In this document: positions 34,488 through 42,177 of the stretch, piece after piece
Position numbering within the stretch: position 1 is the first letter of the stretch
How the letters are laid out: every line of letters starts with the position of its first letter
Assembly (NCBI GenBank): GCA_964507055.1
Contig: CAZDOJ010000001.1
Span: 206,793-270,792, forward strand
Source: an uncultured Gammaproteobacteria bacterium
GTDB taxonomy: Bacteria; Patescibacteriota; Microgenomatia; Levybacterales; UBA12049
Direction: 5' to 3'
Length of the DNA: 64,000 nt
The notes under the pieces: model-generated
Seen by the model: the letters and a program-made list of their open reading frames with translations, nothing else
Told to the model about the DNA's origin: nothing
The model's database searches: none
Translations under genes and position numbers: made by a program

Positions 34488-34632
34488 GTCAACCTGATTA
34501 TCAGGAAATCTGACATTAAAGTCAATAGGACAGTTAAAACGCACAGTTTTGAGGCTACTAATTCTAAGTCAATGTGTAGCGATGAGGTATATTGGTAATT
34601 CTTTTAACATGGTATACTTTACTGTATTTATG

Positions 34633-37261: not shown

Positions 37262-37374
37262 ATTTTATTTGATTAAAATCTTTGTGAGAAATAGTATTTA
37301 TTACATCTGTAAGATACTGTTAAACAAGAACCCGCTCAATGTGTAACGGTGAGGTAATGTCTCAGAATTTTCAT

Positions 37375-37662
37375 TTATGTTATCGGTATATATAAACCGT
37401 AATAAGAGCTTTCATTTCTTTTTGGAAGCCCAAGTCTTATTCTATGTGCTGCCAAACTATTAATAAGCTCGCGTATTCTGTTTTGTCCTTTACTAATATA
37501 GATGTCATCAATATATTCATATCCCCTACTTGGAGATGTTTTCGGGCTTAATGTAGTATCAAAAATCATATTCGTGTGAATATACATATCGAACATTAGC
37601 ATTGTACTTTGGGTATTTGGGCTTTTCATTGACAGGTGAGTCAATGCTCTTTCTGAGTGCAT
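37375..37662 (-). CDS. small protein, paralog A of a three-member family (IFDTTLSP...RGYEYIDDIY...IRLGLPKRNESSYYGLYIP)
   Basis: Shares motifs with products 39100-39327 and 39345-39575. The true start is likely an internal Met (~75-80 aa). Divergent from the HTH/GAF gene. Confidence 0.45.
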   Translation of the reverse strand: MHSERALTHLSMKSPNTQSTMLMFDMYIHTNMIFDTTLSPKTSPSRGYEYIDDIYISKGQNRIRELINSLAAHRIRLGLPKRNESSYYGLYIPIT

Positions 37663-37704
37663 AAATTAGAATCTAAGTTGTAAGCAGATTATCTGCTTGT
37701 TATA

Positions 37705-38535
37705 ATGCAAAAAATGAATCACTTAGCGTCTGCGTTAAAAGATTACTATACGAAAAGAGACGGTAAGATTATTTTTATAAATAACTGTTCTCTTAATAGA
37801 CTCGCGTTATTGATGTGGGAAGAGCTTCATTTTAGTCAGATCGATGCGAGTGTCCTTTCCAAAGTAATTAACGGCAAAAGACTCTTTACAAATACACAGC
37901 TTGAGGCATTTTGCAAAGTATTAGATATCCCTTCAAAAGAAAAATCTTATTTGTTTTATTGCCTAAATCAAGATTATTGTGATCGATACAATATTTCTTT
38001 GGATGATTACTTCTTATCTAAGGATTCTGTTTTGGAGCTTTTGAGGAAATGTTTGAATGAAATGGTTCAGACGAAACCTATTTTTGATACCCAATTGCCG
38101 CAAATAATTGAATCATTTACGAAGAATATTACTGACACATCTATGAATAGTGTCTATGAAAAAAATGTTTTTGAAGTTCTTGGAACATCGTTATTCTTTA
38201 AGGCGAAACGATTAATTAATTTTAAGCACGGCTCGTTATATATTGCTGATGATGGTACGCTTGCTCGTGTATATGCTTCATCGCCTGTTTTATATAAAGT
38301 CTTTCCAAGACAAACCGGAACTACGATGAGTGTATACAAGCAACAACGTACCTTTACTTTTCCAGCGGATTATATACTGAATTTCCATCCTGAATTAAAT
38401 CAATTATCTATTGGCTCGGATTTGGTGATACCACTTATATACAAACAGAAGACATTTGGAGTTCTTTCGATGCTGTCGGATAAAGATACTACATTTACCA
38501 AAAAGGACATCACTACTCTACAAAATTATCTTTAG
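37705..38535 (+). CDS. putative regulator with weak HTH-like N-terminus and GAF-like C-terminal domain
   Basis: N-terminal ...SVLSKVINGKRLFTNTQLEAFCKVLDI (XRE-like helix pattern, weak). C-terminal ...GSLYIADDGTLARVYASS...VIPLIYKQKTFGVLSM (GAF-like). Confidence 0.35.
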   Translation: MQKMNHLASALKDYYTKRDGKIIFINNCSLNRLALLMWEELHFSQIDASVLSKVINGKRLFTNTQLEAFCKVLDIPSKEKSYLFYCLNQDYCDRYNISLDDYFLSKDSVLELLRKCLNEMVQTKPIFDTQLPQIIESFTKNITDTSMNSVYEKNVFEVLGTSLFFKAKRLINFKHGSLYIADDGTLARVYASSPVLYKVFPRQTGTTMSVYKQQRTFTFPADYILNFHPELNQLSIGSDLVIPLIYKQKTFGVLSMLSDKDTTFTKKDITTLQNYL

Positions 38536-38536
38536 T

Positions 38537-39103
38537 TTATTCTATGGACTCCGTAGCCAAACCTTTTTCCACAAGTTGTCGTATATAAACTGATTTTGGA
38601 AGATTTTTTTTCTTAGAGATGATATTAAGCTTATTTACCATCTCTGTCGGAAAAAGCACATTATACTTTTTATATTTCTGGATGGGATTACATACTAAAG
38701 CTTCCTTCAAAATCTTAAAAAGCGTTTCTTCAGTATATTCGTATATATAGATGTTTTTGTGTAGGTTCAATTGATCTGAAATTAAAACATCTGGTAAAGC
38801 ATCTTTTGATTTAAGCATAATAATCTCCTTTCCTTGTTGTATTGCATTGGATATCTCAAAACCAACATGTACGCTTGGAAATGTGCATTCTGCTATAACA
38901 ATATCGCACTTTCCTAATTTTTTATAAAAGGTATTAAAATATTCGTTTCTCTTCTCGGCTGTCCATGTAACAAGGGTGTTAGCTGTAACAGAAAGTGCAT
39001 GAGTCACAGTATGATCTGAAGATGTTAAAAAATCGATGATATGTGTTAATTCTTGTTTTCTTTGGACATCTATTTCAAGGGGTGCAAGAAAAGCAATTTT
39101 CAT
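38537..39103 (-). CDS. nucleoside 2-deoxyribosyltransferase-like (NDT/DNPH1/SLOG-like) domain fused to C-terminal ribbon-helix-helix DNA-binding domain
   Basis: N-terminal MKIAFLAPL...CDIVIAECTFPSVHVGFEISNA resembles the NDT/DNPH1 active-site D..G..FE.G.A pattern. C-terminal NVLFPTEMVNKLNIISKKKNLPKSVYIRQLVEKGL has an RHH (CopG-like) pattern. Overlaps upstream small paralog B by 4 nt. Confidence 0.45.
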   Translation of the reverse strand: MKIAFLAPLEIDVQRKQELTHIIDFLTSSDHTVTHALSVTANTLVTWTAEKRNEYFNTFYKKLGKCDIVIAECTFPSVHVGFEISNAIQQGKEIIMLKSKDALPDVLISDQLNLHKNIYIYEYTEETLFKILKEALVCNPIQKYKKYNVLFPTEMVNKLNIISKKKNLPKSVYIRQLVEKGLATESIE

Positions 39104-39327
39104 AAATTTGATTCCTTCATTGGGATATATAGTCCGTAGAATGAACTTTCATTTCTTTTCGGCATTCCTAGTCGGATTTCGTTTACTTCCAGAATTTGTA
39201 AAAATTCTCTTGAGCTGTGTCGTCGTTTATCAAGGTATATATCATCAACATATTCAAATCCCCTCTTTTGAGCAGTTGAAGGGCTCAATGTTGTATCAAA
39301 AATAGTATTTGTACTCAATATATTCAT
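39100..39327 (-). CDS. small protein, paralog B (75 aa)
   Basis: MNILSTNTIFDTTLSPSTAQKRGFEYVDDIYLDK...IRLGMPKRNESSFYGLYIP. Translationally coupled to the NDT-RHH gene. Confidence 0.5.
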   Translation of the reverse strand: MNILSTNTIFDTTLSPSTAQKRGFEYVDDIYLDKRRHSSREFLQILEVNEIRLGMPKRNESSFYGLYIPMKESNL

Positions 39328-39344
39328 CCTATTGGATTGTTATA

Positions 39345-39575
39345 TTATTTTTGTTTTGAGCAATACAAACCAAAATAATGTTTTGATGTTTTTTTCGGAG
39401 AACCTATTTTATATCCTTGAGTATTTGCGAATTCTAAAAGCTCTAGAAGTGTTTGGTATAAATTTGGAATATCTTCTATGTGCTGATAACCTTTTTTCAA
39501 TGCGTTTGAAGGAGTAAGCGATGCATCAATCACATCAAGTTCATTCTTTGCAATAATCTGTTCACAGAGACACAT
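39345..39575 (-). CDS. small protein, paralog C (76 aa, more divergent)
   Basis: Same motif order (..D.SLTPSNALKKGYQHIEDI....Y.IGSPKKTSKHYFGLY); sits between the XRE regulator and paralog B. Confidence 0.4.
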   Translation of the reverse strand: MCLCEQIIAKNELDVIDASLTPSNALKKGYQHIEDIPNLYQTLLELLEFANTQGYKIGSPKKTSKHYFGLYCSKQK

Positions 39576-39637
39576 ATCCTGTGAAATTTATATCAAAAGA
39601 ATTTATTTCTGTCAAGTATTTGATAACAAATAATTGA

Positions 39638-40438
39638 TTAAGATGAAAAAAGTTTCTCAGTATTCTTATCGGCAGGATGGTACATAACTAGTTGAAATCT
39701 AGGGTCATTTATAACCTTTGCTGTAGAGACGTGAAAGCTTAGTGTTTGATATTTACCATTATAAGTATCTTGCATCGTTTTATATTCATAATCAAATAGT
39801 TTTTTCCCATAGGTTTCTTGATTTACTTCTGGCCAGAGTTTTCTGAATTCCTCAAATTGCATCAAATCTTTAACCAGATTCTTGTACCATTTTTCATTTT
39901 GATATTGCTCATTTTCTCCTTTAAATGCGGCTATTTGTGCTATCGCAAATGATTTTAAACTATTTTGATCTTCACCTTTCTTAACAATTACAGAAAATTG
40001 TTCTTTAGGAAAAAAAGGAAATGATAAAAAGCTAGGCTTATTTTCGATGATCCATGATAATTGGTTTGGATTCATTTTTGCAGTAAAAAGAGTATGTTTA
40101 TTTGCATATAGCCATCGGAAGCTAAAATCCATTAAATAAGCCGGATATCTCCATGTATCAATTTTTTCTTTAGTTTCTTCTAAAATATTACTGATTTCTT
40201 GTTCTGTCGGTAAATATCCTCCAACGAGTAAAAAATGACCTTTTTCTTGATGTGTTAAATTTAAAGCATTGATAATTCTTTCGGCAGTATCTCTGTTGGG
40301 TTTTCCTACTCGTCCTTGCTCAATCTTTGAGAGACGGCTTGTGTCTTTCCAACCCAAACTTAGTGATAAATCAACTTGAGAAAGCCTTTTCCTTAGCCGA
40401 TAGTCTTTAATTAATCCTCCTAATGTTGCAGTCATCAT
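39638..40438 (-). CDS. XRE-family HTH transcriptional regulator with ~200-aa C-terminal domain
   Basis: N-terminal LGGLIKDYRLRKRLSQVDLSLSLGWKDTSRLSKIEQGRVGKP = canonical XRE helix-turn-helix; 266 aa. First gene of the minus-strand string XRE-C-B-NDT/RHH. Confidence 0.65.
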   Translation of the reverse strand: MMTATLGGLIKDYRLRKRLSQVDLSLSLGWKDTSRLSKIEQGRVGKPNRDTAERIINALNLTHQEKGHFLLVGGYLPTEQEISNILEETKEKIDTWRYPAYLMDFSFRWLYANKHTLFTAKMNPNQLSWIIENKPSFLSFPFFPKEQFSVIVKKGEDQNSLKSFAIAQIAAFKGENEQYQNEKWYKNLVKDLMQFEEFRKLWPEVNQETYGKKLFDYEYKTMQDTYNGKYQTLSFHVSTAKVINDPRFQLVMYHPADKNTEKLFSS

Positions 40439-40487
40439 ATAGCAGCATTATACCTTTTTATAGGTACAAGCACAAATTAAGTGTTTA

Positions 40488-41588
40488 TTGATATTTTTAA
40501 TGCTATTAAATTATACTTATATAGTTATGACAGATAGAGAACCACATGGAGTCGCTATTGAGGGACGGCATAGAATTAAAGAAACTCCAGGTATTGAAAT
40601 AGAAATAAATACAAGTAGTAGAGATCTTTCATTAGCTATTGCGAGTTCGACAATGCTTTTAAAAGAGGTATTTGCTGATGCAGATTCTCAGCTCCCGTGG
40701 CTAAAACAGAAAGAGAGCAATGACCAATTTAGTTCAGACGCCGATATAAAACTTCGGCATGTTCATGGATTGCTCGATGCATATAGTGCTATACACAAAA
40801 GAGATGCCCCCACAAAAAATAGGTTTACAAGTAACTGGGGAATGCATTCGGATTATCTTGAAGCAAGAATCAATCAAATTGACGCAAATGTGGAAGCACA
40901 ACAAGAGAAGCTTTATGAAGAATCTACTAATTGGACCACTCAAGATGAAAGAAAAGTGGTCCGCGATGCTCATAAATTTGCAGCAAATTTAACAAAGGAT
41001 CAAAAAGATATTCTTTATTCTTCAACAGGTTTGTCTCCCGAAAAGGTTAAAGAAAAATTAGGTCGTTGGGGAATTACGGTTGGTGCTAATGTTGCCTCAA
41101 CATATGCATTAGATGGAACTGCAGTCATCGCTGGGCTTGCTTTGACAAAAACAGGTATACAAGAACATGTTAGTACAGAAACACTTATCGGTTTCTTAGC
41201 TGCCAGTTATGGTGTTTGGTTTAAAGGATTATACGAGAACGTGAAAGAAAATTGGAAGCTATTAGAAGAGCAGGGAGTAAGTACGAGTGCTTTATCAAAA
41301 GCGTTCCATGACTATTCTAAGTCTAAAGGGTGGAGTGAACGCTCTCAAAGACTTGCAACGGCTGCCGGTTACGTAGGTTTAGAAATAGCGAAAGAACTTC
41401 CTTTTTATCTTGGAGCATTTGGATCAGCAACATTTTTTGAGGGGATTTCAGATAAGGATGCAATAACTTTCCTTGCAGGTGCGAATATTGGTGGAGGATT
41501 TTATGAGTATACACTTGCAAAAGGTACTAAAATGGCTCGCAAGTGGATGGGGCGAAGAACTCAAAAACCTGAAAGGCCTAGTCGTTAG
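40488..41588 (+). CDS. hypothetical protein with Gly/Ala-rich amphipathic C-terminal half
   Basis: Intact 366-aa ORF divergent from the XRE regulator; no motif recognised. C-terminal ~170 aa rich in G/A/small residues (WGITVGANVASTYALDGTAVIAGLALTKTG...). Start may be the internal MTDREPHG. Confidence 0.4.
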   Translation: MIFLMLLNYTYIVMTDREPHGVAIEGRHRIKETPGIEIEINTSSRDLSLAIASSTMLLKEVFADADSQLPWLKQKESNDQFSSDADIKLRHVHGLLDAYSAIHKRDAPTKNRFTSNWGMHSDYLEARINQIDANVEAQQEKLYEESTNWTTQDERKVVRDAHKFAANLTKDQKDILYSSTGLSPEKVKEKLGRWGITVGANVASTYALDGTAVIAGLALTKTGIQEHVSTETLIGFLAASYGVWFKGLYENVKENWKLLEEQGVSTSALSKAFHDYSKSKGWSERSQRLATAAGYVGLEIAKELPFYLGAFGSATFFEGISDKDAITFLAGANIGGGFYEYTLAKGTKMARKWMGRRTQKPERPSR

Positions 41589-41589
41589 C

Positions 41590-42177
41590 TTATGCGGCTT
41601 TATCTAATTCAATAAGATATTTTGAAATTATTCCTTCTTCAATGTATATCGCTTTAGTATCAGGATCTAATTGTTTAAATCCTTCAATTGTTCCTCTACA
41701 CATAGGGCTTCCACATTGACATTGGAGGCCTTCTGCTACTGGATCATATTCCATAGCTGCATAATCTACTGAAACTTCATCCCCTTTAGGCATATCTTTT
41801 CTTGCAACAACTTCAATTCTGCCCGTGGTCTCTCCTTCTTCTCTTTCAACAATACGAATATATGCAGTTGGATCACAAGAATGGTTGGTAAAATGCCCAA
41901 AACTTGGTGTACCATCAGGATTTTTTGGATCAAGATGCTCAGTTGGACCATATTGGAATGTATATACTGTTGGGTGGTCAAGTATTGGACCGGTGATTGT
42001 GAAGATAACATCGCCTTTATTGATGGGTTCTTTTGCAATAGTACCAAATTGGCCTTCAACCATATTACTCTTAACAACCGTGACAATACCATTATCAGGA
42101 AGCACTCTTTCGGGTGTTCTGCGTTGTTCAGTTAGCTGTGCTGGCTTAGCACTGATTCCTCTTTCAGTCATGAGCAA
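41590..42177 (-). CDS. SET-domain protein (putative lysine methyltransferase)
   Basis: SET signature FTNHSCDPT (NHSC), EVSVDY (ELxxDY-like), post-SET Cys cluster CQCGSPMCRG; 195 aa. Confidence 0.8.
   Translation of the reverse strand: MLMTERGISAKPAQLTEQRRTPERVLPDNGIVTVVKSNMVEGQFGTIAKEPINKGDVIFTITGPILDHPTVYTFQYGPTEHLDPKNPDGTPSFGHFTNHSCDPTAYIRIVEREEGETTGRIEVVARKDMPKGDEVSVDYAAMEYDPVAEGLQCQCGSPMCRGTIEGFKQLDPDTKAIYIEEGIISKYLIELDKAA

Follow-up and report, generated by a model that had tools for sequence, protein, structure and literature searches.

In the toxin-antitoxin (TA) modules HicAB and HigBA/MqsRA, a small first gene encoding ~60–90 amino acids (aa) is translationally coupled to the gene of a larger protein. 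In modules of the HicAB type, this larger protein has an alpha/beta N-terminus and a C-terminal ribbon-helix-helix (RHH) or XRE-type helix-turn-helix (HTH) domain, the two DNA-binding folds being interchangeable. The same features are found in a predicted operon, termed C-B-188 here, on the minus strand of a 64,000-nucleotide (nt) stretch of contig CAZDOJ010000001.1 (the window). The operon comprises two genes for small proteins, C and B, followed by the gene of a 188-aa protein, and a third small gene, A, lies nearby. An initial annotation, based only on the letters of the window and a program-made list of its open reading frames (ORFs), had described a TA- or abortive infection (Abi)-like cluster in which each small protein is partnered with a DNA-binding protein. 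The ORFs that it named are all present, with the coordinates and strands that it gave them.

The N-terminal part of the 188-aa protein resembles DNPH1/Rcl and the nucleoside 2-deoxyribosyltransferases (NDT; PF05014), and its motif D...AE-x2-PS-x3-G[YF]E aligns with DVVVAEVTQPSLGVGYE of Rcl. It differs from DNPH1/Rcl, however, in not having the conserved YFCGSIRGG positions, in falling below the Pfam threshold, in its C-terminal RHH fusion, and in being encoded in an operon with small proteins. A role as toxin modules of Abi-type proteins has been suggested for NDT-like domains (PMC3710099), and the effector of retron Ec86, which has an NDT-like domain, is reported to deplete adenine derivatives (bioRxiv 10.1101/2023.08.16.553469). 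As in retron Ec86 (Retron-Eco1) and the Abi proteins, an NDT-superfamily domain is here part of a multi-component module whose partners could restrain its activity. Unlike those systems, C-B-188 has no reverse transcriptase, multicopy single-stranded DNA (msDNA) or AbiJ-type N-terminal domain, and has no match in PADLOC.

Proteins of the PutA, NikR and MetJ type combine an RHH with a domain that handles a metabolite, a layout that points to autoregulation in response to that metabolite. The 188-aa protein is built in the same way. In contrast to PutA and NikR, its RHH is C-terminal, the domain joined to it is DNPH1-like, and the small co-encoded proteins, which look obligate, have no counterpart there. 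The layout of C-B-188 resembles known modules of a small protein and a DNA-binding partner, and both the small family and the operon are undescribed in the profile libraries and the searchable literature, where our searches returned only the precedents for NDT-like effectors.

The small protein family and its operon

C (76 aa, 39345..39575) and B (75 aa, 39100..39327) are encoded by the first and second genes of the operon, on the minus strand, and represent a C-type and a B-type subfamily. C is matched by the family profile with E 4e-24, and B is recognized by its ORF and the same profile. A (37375..37587 or 37662, depending on its start, also on the minus strand) is monocistronic and is a lineage-specific duplicate of B. 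A and B align with E 2e-24 and 59–61% protein identity (61% by tblastn) and are 70% identical over 194 nt at the DNA level; B and C align with E 2e-8 and 28% identity (tblastn). The three proteins are paralogous, far beyond chance, and tblastn finds no further copy of the family in the window.

The ordered motifs that the initial annotation saw in the three ORFs belong to a family signature, D-x2-L-[TS]-P-x-N-A-x2-[KR]-G-Y-x-Y-[IV]-D-D, then G-Y-K-L-G-x-P, then G-L-Y-x-P, within a domain of ~65 aa. L14, A19, G23, Y24, D29, G54, G65, L66 and Y67 are near-invariant, and D11, P16, N18 and [KR]22 are strongly conserved as well. The isoelectric points of members range from 4.4 to 9.9 without bias. 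The size of ~75–95 aa first given to the three proteins is borne out for B and C. A probably starts at M26 or M32 and would then have 70 or 64 aa rather than 95; its sequence from M26 onward lines up with the start of B, and the database contains A in both a 64-aa and a 95-aa form. The ratio of nonsynonymous to synonymous substitution rates (dN/dS) of A versus B is ~0.21, so A is a maintained gene under purifying selection. It is absent from L001, one of the related or small-family loci (designated by L numbers) that were compared with the window. A terminator-like hairpin (37332..37349, minus strand, from a consensus scan only) lies directly downstream of A. Upstream of its likely start is a palindrome, CATTGAC-N6-GTCAATG (37627–37646), which is a candidate operator.

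Searches of profile libraries and structures, which had been proposed with the initial annotation, gave neither a family nor a fold for the small proteins, and its statement that the family is not a recognized one holds. No model in Pfam, NCBIfam, PADLOC (PADLOC-DB 2.0) or PHROGs matches A, B or C. When 53 members were compared with Pfam, the only matches were sub-threshold ones to Nif11 (5/53, best E 0.008); these reflect partial helix-plus-GY similarity, and a Nif11 identity was rejected. A profile search of the PDB gave matches to a “KGYxYVDDI” segment of Cas7fv at E 0.08, which were dismissed as chance. The AlphaFold2 model of B is confident (predicted local distance difference test, pLDDT, 83; predicted template modelling score, pTM, 0.71), and a confident model of the family has no structural neighbours and matches no toxin fold. 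The fold of HicA (PF07927), which resembles a double-stranded RNA-binding domain and runs alpha-beta-beta-beta-alpha, was not found in the family.

An exhaustive HMMER search of 1.84 billion representatives (E <= 1e-3) placed the small family in 75 clusters. In 21 of these (~28%), two or three copies of the domain are fused in tandem in one polypeptide. Some multi-domain members carry extra regions (protein records P0070, P0085, P0089 and others), in which no Pfam domain was found. A word-indexed search of 5.8 billion proteins retrieved few relatives compared with the exhaustive search, namely the A, B and C of the window and one relative, and scans of genomes and metagenomes with a single narrow peptide pattern gave one and five loci. 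The family is absent from IMG/VR viral contigs, phage records and plasmid records. From these searches, it appears to be an undescribed family that is confined to the Candidate Phyla Radiation (CPR)/Patescibacteria among the groups sampled.

As had been noted in the initial annotation, B overlaps the 188-aa gene by 4 nt, the stop of one and the start of the other sharing ATGA (..TTTATGAAA..). The spacer from C to B is 17 nt, with AGGA ahead of the ATG of B. Upstream of C, a sigma-70-type promoter (TTGACA-17-TATAAA; 39587..39615, minus strand) can be read, with AGGA just before the ATG; it sits 3′ of the stop codon of an XRE-HTH gene, between that gene and C. A 26-nt block that includes the -35 box, TTATTTG[T/C]TATCAAATACTTGACAGA (39608–39633), is nearly identical in L007, although the proteins encoded are just 56–69% identical. 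The genes of the trio are adjacent, probably co-transcribed and in part overlapping, as is generic for type II TA modules. By these features, C, B and the 188-aa gene are predicted to be a single, translationally coupled operon with its own promoter.

The 188-aa protein (38537..39103, minus strand) consists of an N-terminal DNPH1/Rcl-like domain of the NDT superfamily (residues ~1–140) and a C-terminal RHH (~147–188), as the initial annotation had called it. It matches DNPH1/Rcl over residues 63–97 by phmmer, with CDIVIAECTFPSVHVGFEIS aligned to ADVVVAEVTQPSLGVGYELG. In the PDB, a profile built from 18 homologs hits DNPH1 (E 2.2e-6, positions 4–102) and CMP N-glycosidase (E 3e-3). In Pfam, Nuc_deoxyrib_tr is matched by 10 of the 18 homologs at E <= 0.1 (best 6.2e-5); the gathering score of PF05014 is not reached, the window protein scoring 14.6 bits against a cut-off of 28.8. 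The motif AEC-x-PS-x3-G[YF]EI of the family aligns with the Rcl segment around GYELG. Three features of the superfamily, a flavodoxin-like domain, the Glu of G-[YF]-E and an upstream Asp, are present in the 188-aa protein. E72 is invariant, and D67 and E83 are nearly so. The positions aligned with the Asp, PS and GYE of Rcl are kept, with two exceptions among the aligned homologs, Gln replacing the Glu in one and Glu replacing the Asp in the other.

Nine of the 18 homologs match RHH_3, at best with E 0.001 and short of the gathering score, and there are scattered matches to other RHH families. Antitoxin-type matches of this segment are likewise sub-threshold (RelB-like, E 0.078; CopG_antitoxin/HicB_lk in 2/18). 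The RHH, KKYNVLFP..MV.KLN.ISKKKNLPKSVYIRQLLEKGL, is nearly invariant and is the most conserved segment of the protein, which predicts that its operator is conserved as well. Weak ThsB/TIR-like matches are also found for the family, that to ThsB (E 0.028, PADLOC) being at noise level. The 24 homologs are all from metagenomes or metagenome-assembled genomes, and the two with a taxonomic name are labelled Levybacteria and Patescibacteria.

Recurrence of the module in a variable island

The order C-type, then B-type, then DNPH1-like::RHH is found in the window, L001, L007 and L017. Relative to the orthologs in L001, L007 and L017, C shows 63, 56 and 39% identity, respectively; the corresponding values for B are 49, 46 and 42%. 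Identity between C-type and B-type proteins does not exceed 33%, and the two are distinct orthologous groups across the four genomes. In L010, a single small gene is followed by a short DNPH1-like form of 161 aa. In L009, a 111-aa XRE-like HTH gene stands between the small gene and DNPH1-like::RHH, with a 4-nt overlap at each junction. L008 has two copies, the first with a small gene and a DNPH1-like gene without RHH, and the second a DNPH1-like::RHH without a small gene. In all, a profile-confirmed small gene lies upstream of the DNPH1-like gene in seven of the eight arrangements for which DNA was available (the window, L001, L007, L009, L010, L017 and the first copy in L008). In six of those seven, the two genes adjoin directly, with overlaps or gaps of 1–4 nt, L009 being the one with an intervening gene. 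Junctions of 1–4 nt like those of the window are seen in L001, L007, L009, L010, L018 and L019. As a ninth place, the contig of protein record P0017 has an 81-aa gene, a candidate member of the small family, that overlaps a DNPH1-like gene by 4 nt. Conserved co-occurrence, for which a search had been suggested at the outset, is thus seen for B/C with DNPH1-like::RHH; orphans and fusions of small genes are also common.

The fusion is split in the first copy of L008 (89–2888), where genes for a TauD-family dioxygenase and an alpha/beta hydrolase lie between the DNPH1-like gene and a separate 54-aa RHH ORF, all on one strand. This arrangement looks like a metabolic operon. Genes of nucleotide metabolism occur near the module in L001 (thymidylate kinase, HD, NUDIX), L007 (NUDIX, ThyA) and L010 (MazG, PurE).

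The module is located in an island within a type IV pilus cluster. The island spans ~10 kb between a response regulator (~34.5 kb) and a histidine kinase (~44.9 kb), and corresponds to 4600–13000 of L001. Its AT-rich composition, pointed out in the initial annotation, is evident in a GC content of 0.32–0.35 across 36–44 kb versus ~0.39 window-wide. The pilus flanks are 81–98% identical to those of L001 at the protein level (PilB-like ATPase 98%, response regulator 96%, PilC 93%, prepilin peptidase 88%, pilins 81–95%). The gene content of the island is wholly different in L001, except for the C-B-188 trio, which is 49–69% identical. The retention of the trio while the other island genes were replaced indicates a functional link among its members. 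The window island carries beta-glucosidase-like, GT2, HTH-GAF, XRE, 366-aa, SET-domain and ornithine-decarboxylase-like genes, the first of these labels being presumptive. That of L001 carries NUDIX, HD, thymidylate kinase, DUF1846 and HbpS-like genes. The SET-domain gene of the window (E 8e-12; 41590–42177, minus strand) adjoins the ornithine-decarboxylase-like gene, which is labelled by analogy with L007.

The trio has a dN of 0.22–0.48, compared to 0.02–0.07 for the flanks, a roughly 4–20 times faster divergence. Fast evolution and allele replacement are indistinguishable here because dS is saturated, in the flanks as well, and only dN differs. The genes scanned around the module include none of mobile-element type, and the module keeps the same chromosomal locus across genomes. 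The 188-aa family is absent from IMG/VR contigs and phage records, and its one match among plasmid records is weak (E 3e-4) and belongs to an ordinary NDT gene.

Neighbouring genes and other partners

Between A and the 188-aa gene, divergent from the former and convergent with the latter, lies the gene of an HTH-GAF regulator (37705..38535, plus strand). The GAF part of this call is supported by GAF_2 (E 5.6e-7), and the HTH match is weak. A promoter-like site of the gene at 37678–37706 contains a perfect 17-bp palindrome, AAGCAGAT-A-ATCTGCTT (37682..37698), which is a candidate operator in the intergenic region with A. The XRE-HTH protein (39638..40438, minus strand), called correctly from the start, matches HTH_31 at E 2.7e-8, has an uncharacterised C-terminal domain of ~200 aa, and forms a separate transcription unit upstream of C. 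A Cas11a/Csa5 match (E 8.7e-6) over its residues 38–97, partly over the HTH, is far below the NCBIfam cut-off and was set aside as noise.

The initial annotation had paired A with the HTH-GAF gene and C with the XRE gene. Neither pairing stands: no related locus has an HTH-GAF homolog, and C is separated from the XRE gene by the TTGACA-17-TATAAA promoter, their adjacency not being kept in relatives. XRE homologs lie near the module in L007 (68%) and L008 (36%), where they do not adjoin the small genes, and are absent from L001. More generally, a small gene does stand beside a DNA-binding partner in about half of the loci that were found independently. The 366-aa ORF (40488–41588, plus strand), cited originally as a divergent Gly/Ala-rich neighbour, is only modestly so (17% overall, 24% in the C-terminal half); it is unrelated to the module and is not conserved beside it, having no counterpart in related loci and no match in the four libraries. 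Its C-terminal half has weakly hydrophobic stretches, and translation may really begin at the M14 ATG.

The recurrent DNA-binding neighbours of small genes are RHH::DNPH1-like proteins, stand-alone XRE-like HTH proteins, divergent HTH-NB-ARC and HTH-SBP proteins, and an AAA-Trans_reg_C protein. The XRE-like HTH protein of ~100–111 aa (FAELFKKYRLRAEF...) is encoded just downstream of the small gene, and overlaps it, in L009, L018 and L019; in L020, the FAELFKKYRLRAEF HTH gene is one gene further downstream. In L021, an intact small domain is fused to a remnant of the XRE-like HTH. The same HTH domain heads divergent NB-ARC ATPases in L017 and L020 and an SBP_bac_3 protein in L007, and a divergent AAA-like/Trans_reg_C protein lies near the module in L001.

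A composite cis-element, approximately TAYCAAAT-N4-TGTCAGATTTTCTGACA-N5-TGTCATGG, consists of an inverted repeat and a third half-site and is found upstream of small-family genes and some others. Its sites are L007 3193–3209; L008 32–48 and 3807–3823; L012 66–82 and 3138–3154; L017 1602–1618; L019 870–886; L020 2176–2192 and 3114–3130; L021 917–933; and L023 about 210–245. It is a candidate operator for the XRE-like FAELFKKYRLRAEF HTH family. The window has one degenerate copy at 34499–34515 (minus strand), immediately ahead of the response-regulator gene; taken by itself, this copy lacks significance (32/100 shuffles).

Helical proteins of ~100–135 aa flank small genes in L012 (1600–2010), L014 (478–879) and L020 (2486–2779). 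They have a [VIM]S-x2-[EK][LF] motif and no Pfam match. A helical region is also fused to the small domain at the N-terminus of P0089, a relationship drawn from one purpose-built alignment. Orphan small genes occur between amino-acid kinase and VanY-like genes, between EamA and Mur ligase genes, and in L023 directly upstream of response-regulator and PilC genes; the last has no partner gene, but just ~250 bp of contig lie upstream. In several small-family loci, response-regulator and PilC genes are no more than a few kb away.

In L012, the gene that immediately precedes a triple-domain member (276–764) encodes a protein of 157–162 aa with an extreme content of Gly, Ser, His and Cys. A large ORF of L014 (2039–4705), directly downstream of a tandem-domain member, resembles by eye a type IIG/N6-methylase restriction-modification protein, and is the sole defence-type neighbour seen. 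No tRNA or Rfam RNA was found in the window.

Interpretation and significance

The results above show that A, B and C are paralogs, how far their family extends, which domains are present, how the operon is built, that its gene order recurs, and how fast it evolves. From them we infer a model of how the proteins associate, how the operon is regulated, what ligand or enzyme activity is involved, and what purpose is served. The product of C-B-188 would be a protein complex confined to one clade of Patescibacteria, comprising Levybacteria and relatives. In this complex, the 188-aa protein would combine a dimeric DNPH1-like domain, acting as a nucleotide N-glycosidase or a nucleotide sensor, with a C-terminal RHH that binds an operator at the operon promoter and thereby autoregulates the operon. 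C and B would be anciently diverged paralogs of a ~65-aa alpha/beta domain without a recognizable fold relative. Since 21 of 75 clusters are tandem fusions of two or three domains, the working unit is likely to be a domain pair, and C/B would form a pseudo-heterodimer equivalent to the two-domain unit encoded elsewhere as a single polypeptide. This unit would bind the DNA-binding partner and modulate its activity or its binding to DNA. A, a recent extra copy of B, may work in trans or alone. The role of the module would be local, nucleotide-linked regulation in the variable island of the type IV pilus locus.

A regulatory, nucleotide-linked complex, as opposed to post-segregational killing, is put forward tentatively, at somewhat short of an even chance. 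It is favoured because toxin, antitoxin and defence homology is missing in the libraries, fusions are frequent, and two paralogs are co-conserved. The intact orphans of both genes, the split operon in L008, the neighbouring genes of nucleotide metabolism and the fixed locus favour it further. Several observations count against it. The nucleotide-metabolism neighbours are few and partly non-independent, L001 and L007 being syntenic. The Glu of the GYE motif, which we take to be the catalytic nucleophile in Rcl, is replaced by Gln in two homologs, one of which is the L017 protein. Moreover, the positions aligned with YFCGSIRGG of Rcl, presumably its catalytic Tyr and 5′-phosphate-binding loop, read AF-L-A-[PS]-I-E, so that this loop is not found. 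Catalysis by the 188-aa protein is uncertain because of the Gln substitutions and the unconserved N-terminal segment. In addition, small genes occur without a DNPH1-like partner, being paired with XRE-like HTH genes (L018, L019, L020), beside helical proteins (L012, L014, L020), or alone (L022, L024 and A of the window); the role of the small family is therefore not tied to DNPH1 alone. Finally, the island position and fast evolution fit conflict systems at least as well.

The recurrence beside genes with DNA-binding domains, the tight 1–4-nt coupling, the variable island and the fast evolution are compatible with the original TA/Abi proposal, but no toxin, antitoxin, Abi or defence homology was found to accompany them, and a TA or defence function, argued from architecture only, is on the whole unlikely. 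One form of it would be a reverse-order type II module like HicAB or HigBA, with the small protein or proteins as toxin and the downstream DNPH1-like::RHH, or the XRE-like HTH of ~105 aa, as antitoxin and autorepressor. The order of the genes, the 1–4-nt overlap with an RHH or HTH gene, an interchange of folds that is typical of TA, several paralogs per genome, the narrow taxonomic range, and the ~10-kb island with a trio dN well above that of its flanks would all suit such a module. However, tandem fusions in ~28% of clusters are unusual for toxins, two distinct paralogs are kept together, and neither toxin/antitoxin models nor toxin folds are matched. Intact small genes persist without partners (window A, L022, L024), and in L021 the small domain is intact where only a remnant of the HTH is left. 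The presumed antitoxin retains enzyme-like conserved residues, and no member of the small family turns up in the phage, plasmid or IMG/VR collections. We consider this form quite unlikely. Alternatively, the DNPH1/NDT-like N-glycosidase would itself be toxic by depleting nucleotides or nucleobases, with C/B as inhibitors or sensors and the RHH as autoregulator. Antitoxin-first is the usual TA gene layout, and the small-gene-first order would match it; the NDT-like modules of Abi-type proteins and retron Ec86, the kept positions aligned with the D, S and E motifs of Rcl, the weak ThsB/TIR-like matches, and the island location with its fast evolution point the same way. Yet PADLOC recognizes no system here, the second DNPH1-like::RHH copy of L008 is intact without an adjoining small gene, small-family genes exist without a DNPH1-like gene, and the GYE Glu is lost in the two Gln homologs. 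The chromosomal locus is also constant, without mobile-element genes among those scanned, and the single plasmid match is weak and to an ordinary NDT gene. A toxic effector of this kind is decidedly improbable. The broader notion that the ~65-aa domain is a new fold in a new CPR-specific conflict module, in which C/B restrain the N-glycosidase::RHH protein and the small domain is reused with XRE-HTH and NB-ARC proteins as a general sensor or inhibitor, has in our judgement a small chance of being right.

The small proteins may instead act independently of their neighbours, in ligand binding, in a structural capacity or in connection with the pilus, so that their adjacency to regulators would be the inherited gene order of small CPR genomes. 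Orphans in unrelated contexts and the several loci close to response-regulator and PilC genes agree with this, as do the conserved polar and aromatic residues (D, N, K, Y, Y, DD, K, Y), which suggest a ligand site in the small domain. Stop/start overlaps with the downstream gene are kept, however, though the proteins are just 40–70% identical, and the trio was co-retained while every other island gene was replaced; independent action is accordingly judged improbable. It is also conceivable from three tandem or nearby small paralogs with weak Nif11 matches that they are precursors of ribosomally synthesized and post-translationally modified peptides with Nif11-like leaders. But the whole 65 aa are conserved and predicted to be folded, there is neither a hypervariable core nor a Gly-Gly cleavage motif, no gene for a modification enzyme or transporter is nearby, and the Nif11 matches are far below threshold. 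The chance of such a role is negligible, and the conservation pattern of the family effectively refutes it.

CPR/Patescibacteria genomes are small and rich in unannotated genes, and a folded, conserved 65-aa domain is a handle on the biology specific to this lineage. Here, the family is found in an operon with a nucleotide-hydrolase-like DNA-binding protein, inside a pilus/DNA-uptake locus. CPR organisms are thought to depend on scavenged nucleotides. If the module controls a nucleotide N-glycosidase, it would bear on nucleotide salvage in the CPR. Should it prove to act in addiction or defence, the TA/defence catalogue would gain a small-protein fold and an arrangement of an NDT-type effector, both of them new. 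Under either reading, the small family merits a database entry and a structure.

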